A stretch of DNA of 64,000 bases from Dehalococcoidia bacterium (GTDB taxonomy: Bacteria; Chloroflexota; Dehalococcoidia; Lucifugimonadales; UBA3495), in assembly GCA_965226825.1 (NCBI GenBank), contig CBDDED010000003.1:2985240-3049239 (forward strand), in the 5' to 3' direction. The position numbers and the translations under genes were made by a program. Shown in pieces: positions 1 to 57,468 of the stretch. The notes under the pieces were generated by a model, which saw only the letters and a list, made by a program, of their open reading frames with translations, ran no database searches and was not told the origin of the DNA. Numbering within the stretch: the stretch's first letter is position 1; the number at the start of each line of letters is the position of its first letter.

Positions 1-497
1 CGGCTGCGCCGACCCCGCCAAGGCCACCGCGGCGGCGTTGATCATTATCTCCTTGGACCGCTCTGCCACTATTTCGGGCAGCGAGTCGTCGGAGCTGCGT
101 TCCCAGATATATTGAACTAAACGGCGGGTGAAAGCCTGAGCCACGAGAGCCCGTTCCTGTGAAGCGCATCTCGACCCCTTAGCAGGGTGGGCAACAGGGG
201 CCGCGGGGGATTTCCGGGAGCATACCGGAGCATTCTGGCTGCTGCAACTTCGGTACAGGGATCCTGAGTCCGGCGGGGCGAGAACGGGGGTGGCAAGTGG
301 GAATAGCAGTGGTTACCTGCGAGGCCGGCGCGGCGGCCAAATCGGGCGGAGCCATTTGGGTTTACTTTGGATTGCAAGTGTGTTTTAGTAAAATCTCGAC
401 CCACCGGCCCAGGCAATCTGAAACCGGGCAGTCGGGGACCCGGAAAATCGCTGGCAATAAAGCAATCACAGCCACACTGGCTGAGGAGTTTTCGAAC

Positions 498-1271
498 ATG
501 AGCTACGAGGTAATTGAAGTTGACAGGCAGGACCGTGTGGCCGTGGTGACCCTGAACCGGCCCGAGGTTCTCAACGCGTTGAGCTACCAGTTGGTCCGGG
601 AACTGGACGAGGCCGTCACCGAGATAGCGGAGGACGACGGTGTGGGAGCGATCGTTCTAACCGGCACGGGGGAGCGGGCATTTTCCGCCGGAGCCGACAT
701 CCACGAGAACCGGGAGCTTGGGGACGAGGAAAGGGACCGCATCACTACGGAGCGCGCGGACTTCACCTGGCGTTTGGCCGCGAGCCCTAAACCCATAATC
801 GGAGCCATCAACGGGCTGTGTTACGGCGGCGGGACCGTTATGGCCACCAGCCTGGACTTTCTGATTGGGTGTGAGCGCTCCAGTTTTCGGTTTCTGGCGG
901 TCAACTACGGTCAGATGAACGCCACCTGGAGCCTTCCCACCATGGTTGGTTGGCCCCGGGCCAAGGAACTGCTCTACAGCGGTCGCGAGGTTTTTGCGGA
1001 TGAGGCCTACCACATTGGCCTGCTGAACCACCTGGTGCCCTCCGAACAGTTGATGGATAAGGCGGTGGAGGCTGCCGCCGGGATTGCCAAGAACCGGGCA
1101 GAGGGCGTGGCCAACATCAAGCAAATACTAATGGAGCACACCGGGAATTCTCTGGAGGAACAATTCAGGGACGAAGTGGACGCTCGGGCCGGCCGGTTTC
1201 GAGGCCTCTCGGTGGAAGAGGGCTTCAAGGACTTCCTGGACCGGAAGGGTCGGAAACCCAGGGTTTCGTAA
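498..1271 (+). CDS. enoyl-CoA hydratase/isomerase (crotonase family)
   Basis: Internal ATG at 498 of ORF 297..1271 gives MSYEVIEVDRQDRVAVVTLNRPEVLNALS, a typical crotonase N-terminus, followed by FSAGADI and GLCYGGG motifs. Confidence 0.9.
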   Translation: MSYEVIEVDRQDRVAVVTLNRPEVLNALSYQLVRELDEAVTEIAEDDGVGAIVLTGTGERAFSAGADIHENRELGDEERDRITTERADFTWRLAASPKPIIGAINGLCYGGGTVMATSLDFLIGCERSSFRFLAVNYGQMNATWSLPTMVGWPRAKELLYSGREVFADEAYHIGLLNHLVPSEQLMDKAVEAAAGIAKNRAEGVANIKQILMEHTGNSLEEQFRDEVDARAGRFRGLSVEEGFKDFLDRKGRKPRVS

Positions 1272-1437
1272 GGCAACGGCGAATCCGGATGTGCGGTCGA
1301 AGCGCCGGGTTCGCTCCAAGCGGCTCGCTGCTATCAACCCACCTGGGTTGCCCCGAGGTGGTCGCCGGCGGTGAGCCACCAACCGCCACCGCCGGGCCGC
1401 GGCGGGGTTGAACCAGACGCCATCGCTCCGGACGGCT

Positions 1438-1463
1438 CTGTTGCATTAGCGGGGTAGCGTAAC
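1438..1463. repeat. Left terminal inverted repeat of GIY-YIG element
   Basis: CTGTTGCATTAGCGGGGTAGC (1438-1458) is the exact reverse complement of 2170-2190. GTAAC extends the match after a 3-nt indel. Confidence 0.85.
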
Positions 1464-1486
1464 CCCTAGCACACAAGGAGGATGCC

Positions 1487-2170
1487 ATGGCACTAAACCA
1501 CGAAGAGCGAAAGGCGACGGCGGACCAGTGGGCACAGCCTGAGTTCTATTACAGCTACATCCTCCGATTTGAGGACGGCGGCTTTTACGTTGGGTCTACC
1601 AACAACCCAGCGGCTCGCTTCACCGAACATGCGGTGGGCGTTGGGGCGGTCGCGACGGCAGGGCGGCGGTTCAAGGTGTGCTTGGTGCACCAGTTCGGCA
1701 CCCGCAAAGAGGCCGAGTACAACGAGAGTCGTATCCAGCGAGCCCTCGCTAGAGGACCTGTCAACGTCGAGGCGATGGTCGACAACTTTGGCCGGATCTC
1801 TTCGATGATACGGCCCGAGAAGACGCTACGAGAGCTTGAGGATGAAGATCGTGCCTTCCAGTTGGAGATGAGAAGCCACTACCACATGCTCCAGGGCAGG
1901 GCTGGTGGCTTCTGGAGCGTAGGCGTTTTTTCTCGGACCGCCTGCGGGTGGGAAATCCCGCCCAAAATCACACCGCATGGTGGGGTCATCTCTGCCGAGA
2001 GCGTCCACTATCCGGCGCATGGTACGGGTCAGTGGCCCACGTTCATCCAAACTGCTCGCGAAGAAGAAGCACTGAGAGCGGTCGGAGGCCGTCCTAAAGA
2101 AGTACCCGTCTGTCGTCGGTGTCTAGACAAGGTGCCCCAAGAACCTACGGAGGAATCCGTTGTTACGTAG
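1487..2170 (+). CDS. GIY-YIG domain nuclease (227 aa) with Cys-containing C-terminal region
   Basis: AAGGAGG at 1475-1481, 5 nt before the ATG. N-terminus YYSYILRFEDGGFYVGSTNNPAARFTEH fits the GIY..YIG..R..H pattern. C-terminal ..TACGW...VCRRC.. could be a zinc-binding DNA-binding part. The stop codon lies inside the right TIR. Confidence 0.8.
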   Translation: MALNHEERKATADQWAQPEFYYSYILRFEDGGFYVGSTNNPAARFTEHAVGVGAVATAGRRFKVCLVHQFGTRKEAEYNESRIQRALARGPVNVEAMVDNFGRISSMIRPEKTLRELEDEDRAFQLEMRSHYHMLQGRAGGFWSVGVFSRTACGWEIPPKITPHGGVISAESVHYPAHGTGQWPTFIQTAREEEALRAVGGRPKEVPVCRRCLDKVPQEPTEESVVT

Positions 2171-2190
2171 CTACCCCGCTAATGCAACAG
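2163..2190. repeat. Right terminal inverted repeat of GIY-YIG element
   Basis: GTTACGTAGCTACCCCGCTAATGCAACAG; the inner 21 bp are the reverse complement of 1438-1458. Confidence 0.85.
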
Positions 2191-2623
2191 AACCCTCCCG
2201 ACGGCTCGGAGATACGCTTGCTCATCGACGACCGCCACGGCGCAACACGCGGTAGCTTGGTGGAGGTCACGCTGCCGGCGGGCCAGGTTTCTCGCCCCGT
2301 ATTGCGCCGGACCGTCGAGGAAGTCCGATATGTCCTGGAAGGCCGGGGCCAGGTCTGGCGCTGTCCGGCTGGCGCCCCCGCTGAATCTGCGCCGCCGGTG
2401 GATGTATCCCCCGGTGACGCTGTAAGCATCCCCACAGGGTGGCGATTCCAGTTCAGTTCCGCCCACCAAGCTGGGCAAAATCAAGAACCTTCGTGATCAG
2501 GTTCACCCTGGCAGCGTAGCCCCTCCTCGGGGGCAAGTCTGCTAATCTTTGCCGGACGCTCCTGCGAGTAGCGCCGGGGAGTGCGACTCCCCGCTCCCAA
2601 GTGTAGGTGAAGAGGGTAAGGCA

Positions 2624-3352
2624 ATGTCACCGAGCGTGGTTACGTGGAATGTCCAATGGGCTACGCCCGCCTCACGCCGGACCCCTGAGATCCTGAGCCG
2701 TATCGATCGACATGCCCCCGGCGTCGTATGTCTCACCGAGACGAACGACCAACTGCTGTCTCAAAATGGGCACACTATCTGCTCCCGGGCCGACTACGGG
2801 TACACAATCAAGGAAGGTCGGCGGAAGGTTACGCTCTGGTCGAGGGAACCTTGGGAGCAAGTCGATGATGTGGGAATCGATTCTATGCCGCCCGGACGGT
2901 TTGTGTCCGGAGTCACCCAGACATCCGTGGGCGAAGTTGCAGTCATAGGAGTCTGTATTCCCTGGTTCGGGTCACGGACTGAGGCTAAACGAAAGTTGGA
3001 ACGCAAGATGCAGTGGGAAGACCATGAACAGTATCTGGCCAGCCTCGCTGAAGTTCCAGGACTGGGTTCTGCAAAGCGTCTGATATTGATGGGGGACTTC
3101 AATCAGATTGTCGGACCCGGCAGCCGCGCTCGCCCTGAACTTCGGTTGGCGCTTCAAGGAGCCTTTCCGCCAAGCATGACAATTGCCACATCGGGTCTTG
3201 CCTTCCTGGGACGCGGAAGCATTGACCACATTGCACTGAGTGAGGATTTGGTAGTCGAGTCCCTGGATGTAATCGGCAACATCCACGACGGGAGGAAGCT
3301 GTCAGACCATTTTGGAGTGGTTGCCGGCGTGTCTGCCCGACAGTTACGATAG
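2624..3352 (+). CDS. endonuclease/exonuclease/phosphatase (EEP) family protein
   Basis: MSPSVVTWNVQW.., ..VVCLTETN.., ..LMGDFNQ.., ..GSIDHI.., ..LSDHFGV match the ordered EEP catalytic motifs. The internal ATG at 2624 is preferred over the ORF-track start at 2549. Confidence 0.8.
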   Translation: MSPSVVTWNVQWATPASRRTPEILSRIDRHAPGVVCLTETNDQLLSQNGHTICSRADYGYTIKEGRRKVTLWSREPWEQVDDVGIDSMPPGRFVSGVTQTSVGEVAVIGVCIPWFGSRTEAKRKLERKMQWEDHEQYLASLAEVPGLGSAKRLILMGDFNQIVGPGSRARPELRLALQGAFPPSMTIATSGLAFLGRGSIDHIALSEDLVVESLDVIGNIHDGRKLSDHFGVVAGVSARQLR

Positions 3353-3380
3353 CGTATATTTGCCAAACAGGCGCCTTGCG

Positions 3381-3574
3381 GCCGGGATAGCCAAGAACCG
3401 GGCCGAGGGCATGGCCAACATCAAGCAGATATTGATCGAACACACCGGGAATTCGCTGGAGAACAATTCAGGGATGAAGTCGAAGCCCTGGCCGGGAGGT
3501 TTCGAGGCATGTCGGTGGAAGAGGGCTTCAAGGATTTCCTGGACCGGAAGGGTCGGAAACCCCGGGTTTAGTAA
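3381..3574 (+). pseudogene. crotonase gene 3' fragment (duplicate of 1078..1271), frameshifted
   Basis: AAGIAKNRAEGMANIKQILIEHTGNSLE matches the C-terminus of 498..1271. It then loses frame through a small deletion; there is no 5' part. Confidence 0.8.
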
Positions 3575-3998
3575 GGCAATCGCGAATCCAGACGTGAGGT
3601 CGAAGCGGCGGGTTCGCTCCGTGGGGGTCGCGGCTATCATCCCGCCCGGATATCCCCGAGGAGTAAGCTAGTGGTGAGCCATCAACCGCCACCGCCGGGC
3701 CGCCGCGGGGTTGAACCCGACGCTATCGCTCCGGACGGCTCGAAGATACGTTTGCTCATCGACGATCGCCACGGCGCTACCCGCGGCAGCCTGGTGGAGG
3801 TCACTCTGCCGGCGGGCCAGGTCTCCCGCCCGGTGTGGCACCGGACAGTCGAGGAAGTCTGGTATGTGCTGGAAGGCCGGGGCAAGGTCTGGCGCTGTGC
3901 GGCCGGCGCCCCCGCTGAATCTGTGCCTCCGGTGGACGTGTCTCCGGGCGACGCTGTAAGCATCCCCACAGGGTGGCGGTTCCAGTTCAGTTCCGCCC
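3381..3998. repeat. Segmental duplication, copy B
   Basis: Colinear with copy A (1078..1438 + 2208..2464). Contains a decayed crotonase 3' fragment and the 5' part of the intact cupin gene. Confidence 0.85.
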
Positions 3999-4102
3999 CC
4001 GAAACTCCCCTCCGGTTCCTCTGCTTCACCACCCCACCCTGGCCCGGCGCTCACGAAGCCGTGCCATCGGAGGAAGGTGGTCTGGGCCAGCCAACGGTTT
4101 AA
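3671..4102 (+). CDS. cupin domain protein (143 aa)
   Basis: Intact ORF with GTG start. GSLVEVTLPAG...HRTVEEVWYVLEGRG...GDAVSIPTGWRFQF resembles the two-motif cupin beta-barrel pattern. Confidence 0.7.
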   Translation: MVSHQPPPPGRRGVEPDAIAPDGSKIRLLIDDRHGATRGSLVEVTLPAGQVSRPVWHRTVEEVWYVLEGRGKVWRCAAGAPAESVPPVDVSPGDAVSIPTGWRFQFSSAPETPLRFLCFTTPPWPGAHEAVPSEEGGLGQPTV

Positions 4103-4174
4103 TTGGGCCCGGCTTAATGAGGCTCGGCGGGCCGCTCGGAAAATGCAACTGCCCGCTGAAGCCGGATTCGGCGA

Positions 4175-5560
4175 TCAGTCATTGTCAAACTCTTCGGGCA
4201 TCAGGACAAATTCGGGGTAGGATTCAATGCCCAATTCCGCGGCGTCCTGACCCAACTCTTCTACCTGCCGCGACACCCTGGCGCCCATCGTCAGGGCCAT
4301 TACTTTCCACAGCACCCACGAGGTCCCGAACACGAAAACTCCAACGGCTGCCACCCCGGCTAGCTGCGCTAGAATGTTGCCGCCGGCGGCGATACAAACA
4401 GCCAGGGTGCCCCAAATGCCAGCGAACAGGTGGGCTGGCACCGCTCCTACTACATCGTCCAGCTTGACAATCTCCAGGAGCTTGATGGCGCAGGTGCACA
4501 GGACCCCACCAATGGCGCCGATGACGACCGCCCAATAGTGGTCGACGAAATCCGGGCCGGCCGTAATCGATACCAGCCCGGCGAGCGCGCCATTCAGGCA
4601 GGCAAACAGGTCGATGCGCCCAAGGACTGGGCGTGCGATCAACAGGGCAGCGATGGACCCGGCGGCGGCGGCCAGGTTGGTGTTGACCAGGACGATGCTC
4701 ATAGCCACCGCATCGGAGGCGCTGCCCAGCGCCAACTGTGATCCGCCGTTGAAGCCGAACCAGCCGAACCACAGGATAAAAACGCCCAATGTCACCAATA
4801 CGACATTGGAGGGTGGGGTAGCCCGGACCGCGCCGTCACGGCGGAATTTGCCGAGCCTTGGCCCGACTACCACCATACCGGCAAGGGCTGCCCAGCCTCC
4901 GGTGCTGTGCACGATAGTTGAACCGGCGAAGTCCTGGAATCCCAACTGGTCCAGCCACCCTCCGCCCCAGGTCCATGCGCCGACGATGGGATAGATGGCG
5001 GCGGTGAGGAACAGCGTGAATAGGAAAAATGCCCACAGCTTCACGCGTTCCGCCAGGGCCCCCGACACTATGGACGCCGCGGTGGCCACAAAAACCATCT
5101 GGAAAAACCAGTCCGACATAACGGAGTGGCCGGCGTCAACCACGGTCTGGAGCGCGCCCTCATCTCCGGCCAATAAGGCTATCTCGTCGGCGGACGGTCC
5201 GTAGAGGAAGTGAAATGACCCGATGACATACTGGACATCGACGTACATCAGGTTGTAGCCGATAAAGAAGTAGGCCAGGCCGGCGATGGAGTAGAGACCG
5301 ATGTTCTTGAGGCAGATCATGGAGGCGTTTTTGGTGCGGACGGAGCCAGCCTCGAGCATAGTGAACCCGGCGCACATCCACATGACCATCGCTCCCCAGA
5401 TCAGGAACGAGAAGGTGTTGATGATGAACTGCGTCTCATCGCTAACGCCGGCCGCATGAGCAACCGACGGCCACCCAAAGAGGAAACCCAGGGATAGGAG
5501 CACTGCTACCGCCAGGAAGGCAACCCGAAAGTGTTGAGGAATGACTTTTAAAATCATCAT
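4175..5560 (-). CDS. amt: ammonium transporter (Amt family)
   Basis: 461 aa, multi-TM, with a signal-like N-terminus. Contains Amt motifs such as AGFTMLEAGSVRTKN and VHSTGGWAALAG. Confidence 0.92.
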   Translation of the reverse strand: MMILKVIPQHFRVAFLAVAVLLSLGFLFGWPSVAHAAGVSDETQFIINTFSFLIWGAMVMWMCAGFTMLEAGSVRTKNASMICLKNIGLYSIAGLAYFFIGYNLMYVDVQYVIGSFHFLYGPSADEIALLAGDEGALQTVVDAGHSVMSDWFFQMVFVATAASIVSGALAERVKLWAFFLFTLFLTAAIYPIVGAWTWGGGWLDQLGFQDFAGSTIVHSTGGWAALAGMVVVGPRLGKFRRDGAVRATPPSNVVLVTLGVFILWFGWFGFNGGSQLALGSASDAVAMSIVLVNTNLAAAAGSIAALLIARPVLGRIDLFACLNGALAGLVSITAGPDFVDHYWAVVIGAIGGVLCTCAIKLLEIVKLDDVVGAVPAHLFAGIWGTLAVCIAAGGNILAQLAGVAAVGVFVFGTSWVLWKVMALTMGARVSRQVEELGQDAAELGIESYPEFVLMPEEFDND

Positions 5561-5815
5561 CCGTACCCGAAGGTCTGCATTGCGAATGACCGGCGTTAGC
5601 TTACCAAAAATTTAGCGTTTTGGGCCTCTTGCGCCGCCGGTATCTGCGGTTCACCAGATGGGGGTTCGAGCCTACGCAGCAGGTATGTGGAGGTAGCCAG
5701 GGCAGCTCAGCAGTTGCTCGGGGCAATATCACCCGTGTCCGGCGTTGGATTTTGAGCGGGAGACGACGCGCGGCTCGGCCTTGGTGGGCCCAGCTTCTAT
5801 GCTGAGTGTCCGGGC

Positions 5816-7084
5816 TCAGGGAATAAAAAGGTAGACGACGGGTAGGCTGGCAACATCGGTGACGCTGGAATTGGTATGGTGCGATACGTGAACGTGCCCG
5901 GTGCCGCAGTCGCCACAGGAGATGGCCCCAATGATGCCGCTGAAATCGCTGGTGGCGGTGAGGGCGTCCCGGAGCTTGGCGCGGTCGATGAATAAAGTAT
6001 TCCCATCGGCAACGGGCACGTCGTCTACCGCCCGGAGGAGAATAGTGGCGGCGTCATAGGCGTGAGCCAGGTAGGCGGATGTTGGCGCCCCACCGTACTT
6101 CTCGCGATAGTCGCCGAAGAGTTCTTCGCCGCTCTTGCCGGTCGCCTCGTTGTTGTTGCCGGTGAAATGGGATTCCGGGCCTGGGAAGTAAACGCCGTCC
6201 GACTCCGGAAGGGAGAGGAAATTGGAGACCAGCAGGGCCGAGCCGCCGATCAGCGTCACTCCTTCGAGCCCCGAGGTTTGGTCGATTTGGCGGACTATAT
6301 GTGCGCCCTCGGCGGGGAAAAGCGGGGAAAAGCGGGGGAAAAAGCCCGTCGGGCGAGCCGGCGGCAATTTAGGTCAGGACGGGGAGCATGTCCGGGTCGC
6401 CTCTGTTGGTGGCGACAGTGGCGACGGAGCCGCCAAGCTCCTCGAAGGAGGCAGTGAAAGCGCCGGTGAGGCCGGATGTGTACGGGTCACCATCGTGAAT
6501 AGCAGCCATGGTGCGCAGACGGCGTTCGTTGTAAGCAAAGATGGCTACCGCCCGTGCTTGGTAGAGATCATTGTGGGCAGTCCGGTAGTAGCCGGGATGG
6601 TAGTTGGACCCCGCGGCGCCGTTGAGGTCGGAAGTAAGCGAAGGGGACGTGGTGGAGGGAGCGACCATCACGAGGCCGGCCTTGCTGAGCATCGGCGAAG
6701 CGGCGGCGGCAGCGACTGAGCATGAAGCGCCAATGACGCCGACGACTCGGGGGCCGCTGGGCACAGAATTGGCCGCGGCGCGGCCTCCCTCTCCGGTTCA
6801 GAGACAGTCGAGGCCTGCGCCCATCGAGACATTGTGCCCTTGTTAGGCCATAGTCCGCCAACGCGAGCATGACACCCCGCTGACTGGGAACGCCCAGATC
6901 CCCGATACCCGACAGCACCGCCATACAACGAATCTGTATATCATCGCCGGGAGCCACTTCCACGGCGCCAAGGGGGCCCGCTTCGAATTTCTCCGTGCCG
7001 CAGGAAACCCAGGCAAGCGCCACGAGAGAAAGCAGGCCAAGAAGGAAAATGGGCTTGAAACCGGGGCTGTGGAACCTTCGGATA
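5816..7084 (-). pseudogene. ABC-type (LivK-like, branched-chain amino acid type) periplasmic substrate-binding lipoprotein gene, multiply disrupted
   Basis: Recognisable pieces lie in three frames: signal/lipobox ..LLSLVALAWVSCG; ..PRVVGVIGASCS..; ..GLEGVTLIGGSALL..AYLAHAYDAATILL. In-frame TGA and TAA codons and at least 2 frameshifts are present. Confidence 0.75.
6312..6343. repeat. Tandem decamer GCGGGGAAAA x3 (imperfect) inside the SBP pseudogene
   Basis: Directly visible. It coincides with one of the frame changes of the pseudogene. Confidence 0.8.
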
Positions 7085-53292: not shown

Positions 53293-54306
53293 CTAATCCA
53301 GCGTTTGGCTTAACGCCGCCAACCCTTCCAGTTTTTGCAGCGCTTCGCCACTGTCAATAACCGCTGCCGCTGCTGCTACTCCCTGGGGCAGATTGTCCAC
53401 TTTGTCTCCAGCCAACAACACGCCGGCCGAATTGAGCAAAACAGTGTCTCGAATCGGGCCTTTTTCGCCGTTGAACAGGCGGTGCATCGTGGCCGCGTTG
53501 GCGTCCTGGTCTCCACCGGCGATGTCCCCAATAGAGCAGGTGGGCAGGCCGGCGTCATCCGGTGTCAGCGTCCATCGCCGGACTTCCCCGCCTTGCAATT
53601 CCCAAACCGAGTTCTCTCCAGAAAGAGACAGTTCGTCCAGGCCGCCGTGGCCGTGGACCACCAGGACGTGGTGCGCGCCCAGCGTGTTCATCACCTGGGC
53701 CATCGTTTCGCCGATTTCAGGGATGCCCACTCCTAAAAGCTGGCTTTGGGCGCCCGCCGGGTTGGTCAGAGGTCCCAGGATGTTGAATACTGTCCGAATG
53801 CCGATCTCCCGGCGCACCGGTCCGGCATGACGCATCGCGGGGTGGAACGCCGGGGCAAACATGAACCCAATGCCCAACTCCTTGATGCAACGGGCTACTG
53901 AATCCGGGGCTAGCTCGAGCTTGACCCCCAGGGCTTCCAAGACGTCCGCGGCCCCGCAAGCGCCCGAGGCGGCGCGGTTTCCGTGTTTGGCAACGGTCAA
54001 CCCTGCGGCGGCGGCCACGAAAGCGCAGGCCGTGGAGATGTTGAAGGTGTTCTTGCCGTCACCCCCGGTGCCCACCGAGTCCACCAACGGTCCTTCCACC
54101 TCAACGCGCAGCGCCTTTTGCCGCATCACCGAGGCCATGCCGGCAATTTCCGGGACGGTCTCACCCTTCAATCGCAGGGCGGTCAAAAACGCGCCCAACT
54201 GGCCCGGAGTAGCTTCCCCATCCATGATTTCATTCATGACGGCGGATGCTTCCTGAAAATCCAGCGAGCGACCGGACACCAGGGCGTCTATGGCTTCACG
54301 AATCAT
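53293..54306 (-). CDS. trpD: anthranilate phosphoribosyltransferase
   Basis: ..VDSVGTGGDGKNTFNISTA.. and ..AKHGNRAASGACGAADVLEALG.. Confidence 0.95.
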   Translation of the reverse strand: MIREAIDALVSGRSLDFQEASAVMNEIMDGEATPGQLGAFLTALRLKGETVPEIAGMASVMRQKALRVEVEGPLVDSVGTGGDGKNTFNISTACAFVAAAAGLTVAKHGNRAASGACGAADVLEALGVKLELAPDSVARCIKELGIGFMFAPAFHPAMRHAGPVRREIGIRTVFNILGPLTNPAGAQSQLLGVGIPEIGETMAQVMNTLGAHHVLVVHGHGGLDELSLSGENSVWELQGGEVRRWTLTPDDAGLPTCSIGDIAGGDQDANAATMHRLFNGEKGPIRDTVLLNSAGVLLAGDKVDNLPQGVAAAAAVIDSGEALQKLEGLAALSQTLD

Positions 54307-54418
54307 TTACCAGTCTCGGAAGTTGGAATATTTGCACTCAATTTTGACCGAGACTTAGTATCTCGGAAGGCCCAAGTATATATCACGCTGAAAGACCCGT
54401 CATCGGATAGTGGCGATT

Positions 54419-54968
54419 AGAAAGGGCTCTGGATTCCCGTTGCGATCGGAAAGACGGAGGTTGGGCGCTGGCCGGCCCGCACGACGTGTCTGGGTTGCCA
54501 TAACCGTCTAGGCGCACGGAAAGGGCTCTGGATTCCCGTTGCGATGGGAAGACGGGGGTTGGGCTCTGGCCCGGCCCGCATGATGTGTCTCGGTTGCTAT
54601 AACCGTGTTGGGTCATAGAAAGGGCTCTGGATTCCCCCTTGCGGGGAGAATGATGGGAGTTGGGCGCTGGCCGTCCCACCCTGGCGTGGCTCTGTTGCCG
54701 TGACCGCAGTGGCGCATAGAAAGGGCTCTGGATTCCCACTGCGGTGAGAATGACGGGGGGTTGGGCACTGGCCGTCCCACCCTGGCGTGGCTCTGTTGCC
54801 GTGACCGCAGTGGCGCATAGAAAGGGCTCTGGATTCCCACTGCGGTGAGAATGACGGGGGTTGGGCACTGGCCGTCCCACCCTGGCGTGGCTCTGTTGCC
54901 GTGACCGCAGTGGCGCATAGAAAGGGCTCTGGATTCCCACTGCGGTGAGAATGACGGGGGTTGGGCAT
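54419..54968. repeat. Tandem array of six ~100-bp REP-containing units between trpD and trpG
   Basis: Units start at about 54420, 54519, 54618, 54719, 54818 and 54917. The last three are nearly identical, inter-REP part included. Confidence 0.9.
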
Positions 54969-54985
54969 TGGGAAAGCTGCTCCGG

Positions 54986-56010: not shown

Positions 56011-57468
56011 TCACTCCTTGCCCTCGGCCAGGTCAATCGCCCTCAGCAGGGCCCCGGCTTTATGCCTGGTTTCCTGGTATTCATCCTCGGCGTTGCTGTC
56101 GGCAACAATTCCGCCGCCGGCCTGCACGTACATGACCCCGTCTTTGTAAATGCCGGTGCGCAGCACCAGGGCCGTGTCCATGTTGCCGGAATAGCTGAAA
56201 TAGCCCACCGCGCCGCCGTAGGCGCCCCGTTTTTCACCTTCTATCTCGGCGATAATCTCCATTGCCCTGATTTTGGGCGCGCCTGACACGGTCCCCGCCG
56301 GGAAGCAGGAACGCAGCGCGTCATAGGGAGTAAGTTCAGGCCGCATGCGCCCCTCCACGTGGGAGACCAGGTGCATTACGTGGGAGAAGCGCTCGACGTC
56401 CATCAACTGGGTGACTGACACCGTGCCGGGGATGCTTACCCGGCCAATGTCGTTGCGCCCCAGGTCCACCAGCATTATGTGTTCCGCACGTTGCTTCTCA
56501 CTGGTTTTGAGTTCCTCCTCCAGCGCGGCGTCTTCCTCGGGGGTCTGGCCGCGGGGGCGAGTGCCGGCGATGGGGTGGGTAGCGGCGATGCCGTCCTCAA
56601 CCATGACGACGGTTTCGATTGCGGCGCCGACAATCTGGAAATCGTCGAGCTGCAAATAGTACATGTAGGGTGATGGGTTGATGCTGCGCAAGCTCCGGTA
56701 CACCTGGAAGGGGTGGGCATCGGTGCGGCGGGAGAACCGCTGGGAGTTTACGACCTGTATCACGTCCCCGGAGTAGATGTACTCGATGCACTTGTCGATT
56801 GCATCCTCATACCCCTCGCGGTTGAAGTTGGAAACCACCTCTCCCGAGTCCTCCGACCTGCCGGGGTTGGACGACTGCAGTTCGGCGGGCAATTCCAGCG
56901 GCTTGGACAGCCGGTCGACCATTTCATCGATCTTTGCGGTGGCTGCGTTGTAAGCAGCCTCAATGTCGCCGTTCAGGTGGGCGTGGCTGACCACCTTGAT
57001 GTCATGTCTCAAGTGATCGAATACCAGCATGGTGTCGCCGAAGGTGAACACGGATTCGGGCAATCCCTGCGGATCGGCCGGCATCACTGGGACCCTGGGC
57101 TCGAAGTAGCTGATGGAATCGTAGGACAGGTAGCCAACTGCACCGCCGTGGAACGGGGGCAGGCCGTCGACAGGTATGAGGTTGAACCTGCTCATCTCTT
57201 CCTGGACCGGGGTCAAGGGGTCAACCTGGCCTTCGGGCTGGCCGGGGCCGGTCTTGATGACCCGGTATGGGTCGGTCCCGATGAAGCTGTAACGCCCGAT
57301 GCGTTCTCCTCCGGATACACTTTCCAGCAGGTAAGAGTAGGGCGGCCGGGCCACCTTCAAGTAGGCGGACACCGGGGTTTCCAGGTCGGCGTTGATCGAG
57401 CGGTACACCGGGACCAGGTTTCCCCGCCCGGCCATCGCCTTTACTTGTTCCAACGTTGGTTGGTACAT
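56011..57468 (-). CDS. trpE: anthranilate synthase component I
   Basis: Internal ATG at 57468: MYQPTLEQVKAMAGRGNLVPVY..; ..LLESV.GGE..GRYSFIG..; ..GAPKIRAMEII..E..RG.YGGAVGY.. Confidence 0.95.
   Translation of the reverse strand: MYQPTLEQVKAMAGRGNLVPVYRSINADLETPVSAYLKVARPPYSYLLESVSGGERIGRYSFIGTDPYRVIKTGPGQPEGQVDPLTPVQEEMSRFNLIPVDGLPPFHGGAVGYLSYDSISYFEPRVPVMPADPQGLPESVFTFGDTMLVFDHLRHDIKVVSHAHLNGDIEAAYNAATAKIDEMVDRLSKPLELPAELQSSNPGRSEDSGEVVSNFNREGYEDAIDKCIEYIYSGDVIQVVNSQRFSRRTDAHPFQVYRSLRSINPSPYMYYLQLDDFQIVGAAIETVVMVEDGIAATHPIAGTRPRGQTPEEDAALEEELKTSEKQRAEHIMLVDLGRNDIGRVSIPGTVSVTQLMDVERFSHVMHLVSHVEGRMRPELTPYDALRSCFPAGTVSGAPKIRAMEIIAEIEGEKRGAYGGAVGYFSYSGNMDTALVLRTGIYKDGVMYVQAGGGIVADSNAEDEYQETRHKAGALLRAIDLAEGKE

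Follow-up and report, generated by a model that had tools for sequence, protein, structure and literature searches.

A family of insertion sequence-derived elements in Dehalococcoidia with a conserved GIY-YIG nuclease gene in the transposase position

Can a prokaryotic transposon bounded by terminal inverted repeats (TIRs) have a GIY-YIG nuclease as its only enzyme? The question is raised by a locus in a 64,000-nt stretch of a Dehalococcoidia bacterium genome (contig CBDDED010000003.1, positions 2,985,240–3,049,239; hereafter the window), where a cupin gene is interrupted by a compact segment whose only gene encodes a protein with a GIY-YIG domain. Known prokaryotic transposases are DDE/RNase-H-like, DEDD or HUH enzymes, serine or tyrosine recombinases, or Cas1, and we know of no GIY-YIG enzyme that moves a TIR element. 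A first-pass annotation made from the DNA letters had proposed either a new type of mobile element or a homing endonuclease gene whose invasion left transposon-like scars. We find that the segment is indeed a TIR-bounded mobile element with a target site duplication (TSD) and a GIY-YIG nuclease as its only gene, and that the finding is real and reproducible across genomes. The element is derived from an insertion sequence (IS), is probably non-autonomous, and carries a conserved nuclease in the position of the transposase; it represents a previously undescribed family. In agreement with the annotation's belief that nothing of the kind had been characterised, our literature search found no published description of such an element, nor any work in which GIY-YIG enzymes are linked to the IS6 family or to TIR/TSD transposons of prokaryotes.

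The limits of the insertion can be read from a second, uninterrupted copy of the same region. Copy A (1073–1438 plus 2195–2472) and copy B (3377–4006) are 86–88% identical, and positions 3729–3741 of copy B align both to 1426–1438 and to 2195–2207 of copy A, which marks 1439–2194 as extra DNA. This segment and its inverted repeats, as first described, were borne out by alignment and by a repeat search: the 21-bp perfect inverted repeat CTGTTGCATTAGCGGGGTAGC lies at 1438–1458 on the plus strand and at 2170–2190 on the minus strand, with no further copy in the 64-kb window at up to three mismatches and none in 100 shuffles. The precise ends were fixed by aligning three relatives of the element (L009, L011 and L015), whose TIRs begin GGTTCTGTTGCA. 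Because these start five bases further out, the element is 1434–2194 rather than 1439–2194 (Table 1). Its true TIR is 25 bp, GG(C/T)TCTGTTGCATTAGCGGGGTAGC, with 24 of the 25 positions matched (the window form can also be written GG(C/T)TCTGTTGCATT). The inverted repeats and the target duplication of the first-pass annotation are therefore real, but the TIR is 25 bp long and not 21–26, and the duplication is 8 bp and not 13. The longer duplication was only apparent, as the five bases that follow in the target (GGCTC) look like the tip of the TIR (GGTTC). Excising 1434–2194 together with one 8-bp copy in silico yields a continuous cupin frame in which 100 of 112 residues are the same as in the paralog encoded by copy B. 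The element entered the cupin gene by transposition that duplicated 8 bp.

Within the element, a single sizeable open reading frame (ORF) runs nearly from one TIR to the other. It has the strong ribosome-binding site (RBS) and the stop codon at the right TIR that the annotation had recorded (Table 1). The idea that the segment might instead be a group I intron found no support, as neither a group I intron nor any other Rfam family matches positions 1–6000 at E ≤ 1. A further ORF (2119–2496) starts in the 3′ end of the element and reads in frame through the right TIR into the cupin fragment; the public annotation of this locus (L001) lists it as a gene of 104 aa, and it is probably fortuitous.

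Table 1. Features of the element in the window and of related elements at other loci
Feature	Locus	Coordinates	Strand	Details
Mobile element	Window	1434–2194		761 bp; 0.66–0.76 kb across the family
Left TIR (IRL)	Window	1434–1458	+	GGCTCTGTTGCATTAGCGGGGTAGC; 24/25 complementary to 2170–2194; IS6-family-type tip
Right TIR (IRR)	Window	2170–2194	-	Reverse complement GGTTCTGTTGCATTAGCGGGGTAGC; inner base overlaps the TAG stop codon
Left TSD copy	Window	1426–1433		8 bp, CTCCGGAC; same as the one copy at the unoccupied paralogous site, 3729–3736
Right TSD copy	Window	2195–2202		8 bp, CTCCCGAC; one substitution; 7/8 match to left copy
RBS, AAGGAGG	Window	1475–1481	+	5 nt upstream of the ATG; read from sequence
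Only ORF of the element	Window	1487–2170	+	227 aa; starts 28 nt past IRL; TAG stop (2168–2170) abuts the right repeat
Cupin copy A, 5′ fragment	Window	1371–1433	+	Codons 1–21; frame restored when joined to 2203–2472
Cupin copy A, 3′ continuation	Window	2203–2472	+	Copy-B homology stops at 2472; 3′ end truncated too
Cupin copy B, intact paralog	Window	3671–4102	+	Pfam Cupin_2, E 5.4e-10; unoccupied target CTCCGGAC at 3729–3736
TIR class T1	Window, L009, L011, L015			GGTTCTGTTGCAtttagcggggtag
TIR class T1, decayed	L010, L012, L013, L014, L017			
TIR class T1, left end only	L034			Distant member
TIR class T2	L004, L005, L008			GGGGATTATATACGTGGCTACC; unrelated
TIR class T3	L019, L020–L030, L031/L032			GGTTTCGTTTGCCAATAGGGTATT; evident T1 derivative; similar tip in L036
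Tips across element classes				GGTTCTGTTGCA / GGTTTCGTTTGC / GGGGATTATATACG
TSD, 8/8	L011			GGGTGCAG
TSD, 8/8	L005	2961–3673 (element)		GATTGAAT
TSD, 8/8	L004			TAAGAAAT
TSD, 8/8	L019			TAATACAC
TSD, 8/8	L020			CCACGGCG
TSD, 8/8	L032			GCCGGATG
TSD, 7/8	Window, L009, L015			
Composite element	L004	2959–4002		Three T2 TIRs; perfect TSD (TAAGAAAT) flanks the outer pair
Long form of T3	L032 (also L031)	2938–6035		3.1 kb; perfect TSD (GCCGGATG)

The encoded protein consists of an N-terminal GIY-YIG domain, a helical linker and a C-terminal part. The catalytic N-terminus proposed in the first pass is confirmed by a Pfam match (PF01541, residues 21–87, nt 1547–1747; E 2.3e-9, 37.9 bits against a cut-off of 22.6) and by an alignment of 27 sequences, in which Y24, Y34, G36, R44, E47, H48, E77, N79 and E80 of the nuclease domain are invariant or nearly so. 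In the same alignment, His133, Cys153, Cys209 and Cys212 are conserved in the C-terminal part (nt 1883–2122) and are predicted, probably, to bind zinc. Remote-homology and structure searches with the 227-aa protein, which the annotation had put forward as a check, agree on the type of nuclease. A profile search of the PDB returned UPF0213 EF2693 (E 6.8e-10), BH0048 (E 2.1e-7) and Slx1 (E 1.4e-4), and the best Foldseek matches are likewise UPF0213 and Slx1. The AlphaFold model (mean pLDDT 85) contains an alpha/beta core of GIY-YIG type together with three long helices and, at the C-terminal end, a small part rich in beta structure, for which there was no significant structural match. Judged by these comparisons, the protein is a predicted GIY-YIG nuclease of the UPF0213/Slx1 clade.

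A DDE transposase domain was not detected in this protein: Pfam gives GIY-YIG only, and hhalign of the family against Tnp26, the IS26 transposase, returns a probability of 0.5%. Two further ways in which a transposase might have left its mark were tried and rejected. Homology of the C-terminal part to the DNA-binding domain of IS6 transposases was negative in hhalign, and fusion of the family to a DDE domain was not seen, with longer members showing GIY-YIG only. Matches restricted to the C-terminal part look like truncated or decayed copies.

The locus is not unique; had it been so, this would have spoken against a mobile element. Relatives of the window protein number 30 at 90% clustering, and an exhaustive profile search of 1.84 billion representatives identified 59 relatives (clusters) at E < 1e-10, beyond which only generic GIY-YIG domains appear. 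All loci with a named source organism come from metagenome-assembled genomes of Dehalococcoidia/Chloroflexota, and the 11 loci from species-representative genomes lie in 11 different genomes, one each; the remaining loci are on metagenome contigs. We examined about 20 independent sites for ends and duplications. At about two thirds of these, at least one end is recognisable, and nine sites have both ends together with an 8-bp duplication (six matching at 8/8 positions and three at 7/8), with no target consensus. The relatives thus have TIRs of their own and 8-bp TSDs at many different sites. Their ends fall into three classes, T1 to T3 (Table 1). A blastn search of plasmids with the T1 and T2 TIRs gave chance matches only, and viral contigs yielded neither protein relatives nor TIR matches. 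At one of the decayed T1 loci (L012), the inverted repeat (3917–3942 / 4624–4649) runs outward (GTGGWGGGTCCGA...) past the expected TIR tip, which hints at a longer variant of the TIR or at an insertion into a palindrome that was already there.

These nine sites bear directly on the other half of the first-pass proposal, a homing endonuclease leaving transposon-like scars. Since the targets are unrelated, the duplication is fixed at 8 bp and there is no intron, that origin is unsupported. A GIY-YIG homing endonuclease gene would be expected in a group I intron or at a single conserved position between conserved genes, with site-specific insertion and no TSD, and this does not agree with the lack of an Rfam match at E ≤ 1 or with an 8-bp TSD at each of the nine sites. 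A Penelope-like retroelement was rejected, the single 227-aa ORF having a GIY-YIG domain only and no reverse transcriptase.

Several of the related elements have moved recently. Near-identical T3 elements, with proteins more than 90% identical, occupy three different sites, and two copies lie about 500 kb apart on one 1.47-Mb contig; the presence of two copies on one contig indicates that the family transposes. Recently transposed copies are found, for example, on ctg124950 of ERZ28763718, OZ242191.1 and OZ244824.1, and elements are also present in CBDHFB010000016.1 and GCA_047514375.1. The commonest T3 lineage (L020–L030, L037–L039) sits at one fixed site in a recurrent island, seen on at least 13 contigs from several samples. 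Alongside many small ORFs, this island has genes for a protein resembling helix-turn-helix (HTH) repressors, a PIN-domain protein, a large serine recombinase together with a second resolvase, and a ribbon-helix-helix (RHH) antitoxin, and it may be the vehicle that spreads the T3 element between genomes. The ratio of non-synonymous to synonymous substitution rates (dN/dS) is 0.20–0.26 between lineages and about 0.5–1.1 among recent copies, with small counts for the latter. A ratio that is low between lineages and near 1 in recent copies is the pattern expected of selection at the level of the element.

Two larger derivatives indicate how little of the shell is needed for movement. In the L004 composite, the inner right TIR (3642–3665) and an ORF for a 98-aa membrane protein are enclosed within the unit, and the outer, third TIR was the one used for transposition. 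In the 3.1-kb unit of L032, the two ends share only about 12 terminal nucleotides. Besides the GIY-YIG gene, the unit carries ORFs for a C4 zinc-ribbon protein, a secreted protein resembling metalloproteases (HExxHxxGxxH) and a possible lipoprotein, an ORF of 84 aa and a DUF1508 gene, and it contains an internal 69-bp TIR-TIR mini-element (5429–5497). In both forms, the ends work without matched internal sequence. The family transposes, cuts its target with an 8-bp stagger and requires no more than about a dozen terminal bases at each end. At L031, the other locus with the long form, a DDE_Tnp_1_4 insertion sequence with a 441-aa transposase has landed just downstream of the nuclease gene.

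We then asked where such ends come from. According to the review of the IS6 family by Varani et al., these insertion sequences are 700–890 bp long, make 8-bp repeats, have TIRs of 15–20 bp with G-dinucleotide tips and cTGTt and caaa motifs, and contain one ORF of 213–254 aa that extends from the left end across the whole IS. The IR of IS257/IS431 is GGTTCTGTTGCAAAGTT and the end of IS26 starts GGCACTGTTGCAAA. TIRs of the family described here start GG(T/C)TCTGTTGCA; the window IRL starts GGCTCTGTTGCA, and the TIR of L015, GGTTCTGTTGCAAAG, is identical to IS257 over 15 nt. Identity to IS6 tips over 12–15 nt is beyond chance and indicates that the shell is of IS6 origin. The T1 tip also occurs in distant members such as L034, and it is therefore the ancestral one. 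The agreement has its limits: the 'caaa' motif reads CATT in the window, and the T3 and T2 lineages deviate from the IS6 motifs.

Thus, four of the five features that define IS6/IS26 elements are present (size, TIR, 8-bp TSD and a single end-to-end ORF), and the fifth, an HTH-DDE transposase (Pfam DDE_Tnp_IS240 / rve), is missing. Lacking the DDE transposase, the element is not a strict IS6 member; it is an IS6-shelled, transposase-less element, and it has one mark of a non-autonomous IS derivative, namely IS-family TIRs and a TSD without a transposase gene; a second mark would be an autonomous partner IS with matching TIRs in the same genome. The ends themselves are consequently not novel, as had been supposed in the first pass, since tips, TSD, size and one-ORF layout together make up the IS6/IS26 signature. 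It is DDE chemistry, rather than the GIY-YIG protein, that this footprint indicates. An ISL3 origin, suspected from the GG tip and the 8-bp TSD, was rejected: published ISL3 TIRs begin GGCTCTTCG... (examples GGCTCTTCGCGG...), and the T1 tips fit IS6 at 12–15 of 15 positions and ISL3 at 6–7 of the first 9. The T2 tip, GGGGATTAT, may resemble the IS1595/ISNwi1 group ('ggnnatTAT', 8-bp TSD), a possible likeness that is not used as evidence.

If the nuclease acted on the ends, protein and TIR would be expected to change together, and we find that they do not. P0003, which lies between T2 ends, is 82% identical to P0004, which lies between T3 ends, and only 70% identical to P0002, which has T2 ends like its own. 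The window protein (T1) is closest to T2 and T3 proteins, at 60–66%, and has 40–47% identity (tblastn) to the proteins of L009, L011 and L015, though their TIRs are nearly the same as its own. A variable C-terminal insert is common to the window protein (T1) and P0002 (T2). Homology between the DNA of T2 and T3 elements begins some 12 nt ahead of the ATG and ends with the stop codon; the sequences outside are unrelated. The occurrence of 82%-identical proteins between unrelated TIRs argues that the GIY-YIG protein probably does not recognise the TIRs. With TIR class uncoupled from the protein, a cassette consisting of RBS plus ORF has changed shells, and the sequence of the shell is probably set by something else.

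Such a cassette could, in principle, be a free-standing GIY-YIG homing endonuclease gene that invades IS or miniature inverted-repeat transposable element (MITE) shells, cutting copies of the shell that lack the nuclease and entering them by double-strand-break repair, and then hitch-hikes as the shell transposes. Many homing endonucleases are GIY-YIG enzymes, what is conserved in at least two unrelated TIR shells is precisely the RBS and the ORF, and the 69-bp TIR-TIR mini-element is a possible kind of landing pad. We nevertheless consider this origin highly improbable. The protein belongs with the UPF0213/Slx1 clade and not with I-TevI/Seg, no homing-type DNA-binding modules were detected in it, and the shell on either side of the ORF amounts to only about 25 bp, leaving little homology for repair. 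Moreover, the shells hold no remnants of a transposase gene, insertion is not site-specific, and there is no group I intron.

The explanation we favour, and to which we would give about an even chance, is that the element is a transposase-less IS6 derivative that is moved in trans by a DDE transposase and carries the nuclease as selfish cargo. The DDE transposase gene of an IS6-type shell would have been replaced by a gene for a GIY-YIG nuclease with a linker and a His/Cys C-terminal part. End cleavage and strand transfer would be performed in trans by a DDE transposase, of IS6 type for T1 and T3 elements and of another family for T2, and the nuclease would be kept for helping the element to spread or persist. 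Its task may be structure-specific cutting of branched transposition or recombination intermediates. UPF0213 and Slx1 being the nearest solved structures, the nuclease clade would be structure-specific rather than sequence-specific. IS6 elements transpose replicatively and leave cointegrates for resolution by recombination (Varani et al.); as these need resolving, structure-specific cutting would be the one role that fits the fold. More speculatively, the nuclease might resolve cointegrates or Holliday junctions, or might cleave 5′ strands as does TnsA of Tn7.

Several points weigh against this explanation. A tblastn search with Tnp26 found no DDE partner in the window and the other loci (about 262 kb in all), and a protein search seeded with Tnp26 had only IS26-like enterobacterial proteins among the matches listed. 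The review by Varani et al. reports data implying that the IS26 transposase acts exclusively in cis, and it lists only two IS6-derived MITEs; with a cis-only transposase and rare MITEs, mobilisation in trans is not typical of the IS6 family. The clearly mobile copies all keep an intact nuclease ORF as their sole conserved gene, as an autonomous element would. Because T3 deviates from the 'cTGTt' core and T2 is unrelated to IS6, extra matching transposases have to be assumed. Three loci (L007, L016 and L041) have an intact GIY-YIG ORF without a recognisable TIR, and these may be immobilised copies or may have a further, unrecognised shell. Finally, the proposed role of the nuclease is purely inferential and forms the weakest step of the proposal. 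Direct repeats were seen at two of the three loci just named: two of about 60 bp lie upstream of the nuclease gene in L041 (2790–2945), and AAGGG(G)ATCACA is present on both sides in L007.

Some of the same points speak for an alternative in which the family is an autonomous transposon superfamily and the GIY-YIG/His-Cys protein acts as its transposase, or else as a catalytic subunit that is encoded in cis and is essential. The IS6-type ends would then have been inherited, the GIY-YIG site would cut both ends and target, and joining would fall to the enzyme or to the host. No DDE gene lies near any copy, and the cis-only action of the IS26 transposase and the rarity of IS6 MITEs weaken the trans model. 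The nuclease gene is the sole ORF of every compact copy, packed exactly between the TIRs, and is intact in all copies with a perfect TSD, across three TIR classes. Its dN/dS, low between lineages and near 1 in fresh copies, is as for transposase genes, and the GIY-YIG catalytic residues (Y24, Y34, R44, E47, H48, E77/E80) are invariant or nearly so. In addition, the mini-element and the passenger-carrying derivatives, with the same tips, occur in a genome with two nuclease-bearing copies.

We still judge this alternative unlikely, while giving it a sizeable minority chance, on evidence from both the ends and the enzyme. Proteins that are 82% identical have unrelated TIRs (T2 versus T3), whereas proteins only 40–47% identical share a TIR over 12–25 nt, and TIR class is not reflected in the variable region of the C-terminal part. 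The tips are the consensus recognised by IS6 HTH-DDE transposases, which have no detectable similarity to this protein. TSDs of a fixed 8 bp are characteristic of DDE transpososomes, whereas GIY-YIG enzymes are hydrolytic nucleases for which, to our knowledge, no strand-transfer activity has been described. The 11 loci in species-representative genomes, at one per genome, also count against an autonomous element. The notion of the GIY-YIG protein as transposase is thus neither shown nor likely, the TIR class not tracking the protein. In a weaker version, the nuclease may be an obligate 'hyperparasite' that hijacks DDE IS shells and processes branched intermediates.

The cargo might alternatively serve the host. 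Here, the element would be a mobile insertion cassette (MIC) whose nuclease benefits the host in DNA repair or defence but takes no part in moving the element, which depends on resident DDE transposases acting in trans. This would account for IS6-type ends, a TIR class independent of the protein and derivatives with other passengers, and it is in keeping with the persistence of intact ORFs without recognisable TIRs at L007, L016 and L041 and with the one lineage that rides a serine-recombinase island beside PIN and RHH genes. We regard it as a doubtful candidate. PADLOC defence models and NCBIfam gave no match for the protein (PHROGs gave a weak 'endonuclease' match only), and the gene rarely occurs without a TIR shell, at least one end being recognisable at about two thirds of the roughly 20 sites. 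The shell is kept down to about 35–40% identity, as would be unusual if the cargo were casual; a dN/dS close to 1 in recent copies (small counts) argues against host-level selection; and the family is tiny, the search of 1.84 billion representatives having yielded 59 clusters at E < 1e-10.

The consequences differ between these readings. If the nuclease replaced the transposase, the family would be a parasite of insertion sequences, which would be a new way for selfish elements to relate to one another, and it might provide a natural, compact nuclease that is structure-specific and tied to transposition intermediates. If the nuclease were the transposase, it would represent a sixth catalytic class of transposase, and the family would be a transposon superfamily, cut-and-paste or copy-in, that is the first in prokaryotes to use a GIY-YIG active site, having taken over IS6-type ends. 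For genome annotation, IS finders keyed on transposase genes would miss the family, whose ORF is currently called only 'GIY-YIG endonuclease'.

The surroundings of the element in the window have features of their own. The direct, diverged duplication (1073–4006) in which it lies comprises the 3′ end of an enoyl-CoA hydratase gene and the 5′ two-thirds of the cupin gene. Its two copies are separated by a unique 0.9-kb segment with an endonuclease/exonuclease/phosphatase-family gene (2624–3352), and 3377–3571 is a hydratase pseudogene fragment. This layout resembles the outcome of a single crossover that integrated foreign DNA with a homeologous fragment on it. Elsewhere in the window, a tandem array (54409–54971) of 5.6 copies of a 101-bp unit, with 86% matches, is flanked by large ORFs, one ending at 54306 and the other starting at 56011; it surfaced in the search for TIR tips because each unit contains GGCTCTGTTGCC.

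Among known systems, Slx1 and UPF0213 (YhbQ-like) proteins provide the closest solved folds and sequences for residues of about 19–90. Slx1, a structure-specific nuclease of eukaryotes, has an N-terminal GIY-YIG domain and a C-terminal zinc-binding domain and cuts branched DNA. The element protein shares the order of an N-terminal GIY-YIG domain and a C-terminal zinc part, the latter predicted; unlike Slx1, it has no Slx4 partner and is encoded in a TIR element, and homology of its C-terminal part to a RING/PHD finger is unsupported. I-TevI, the T4 Seg/Mob endonucleases and Penelope-like retroelements are alike in tying a GIY-YIG nuclease to a selfish mobile element. In contrast to I-TevI and Seg/Mob, the element has neither an intron nor site specificity, it has TIRs and a fixed 8-bp TSD, and its nuclease belongs to another clade. 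In Tn7, TnsA is a restriction-enzyme-fold nuclease that cuts the 5′ ends alongside the DDE protein TnsB. It is a precedent for a non-DDE hydrolytic nuclease that alters the outcome of DDE transposition, with the difference that the DDE partner is encoded in Tn7 itself and the element has no DDE gene.

The IS6/IS26 family (IS26, IS257/IS431, IS6100, IS1216) is the closest match for the shell, with lengths of 0.7–0.89 kb compared to 0.66–0.76 kb, short TIRs that are tipped with GG and have a CTGTTGCA(AA) core, an 8-bp TSD without target consensus, a single ORF of about 200–230 aa from IRL to IRR, and derivatives with passenger genes. The differences are that the ORF of the element encodes a GIY-YIG nuclease and not an HTH-DDE transposase, and that the TIRs of some lineages have diverged (T3) or are unrelated (T2). 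MICs, transporter ISs (tIS), MITEs and Tn3-derived inverted-repeat miniature elements (TIMEs), all of them non-autonomous and mobilised in trans, likewise have IS-type TIRs and a family-typical TSD around non-transposase DNA, and likewise form mosaics from extra ends, as do the third TIR of L004 and the 3.1-kb unit of L032. Whereas MICs and MITEs carry arbitrary cargo or none, the family described here keeps one constrained nuclease gene, which stays with it across deep divergence and in different shells.

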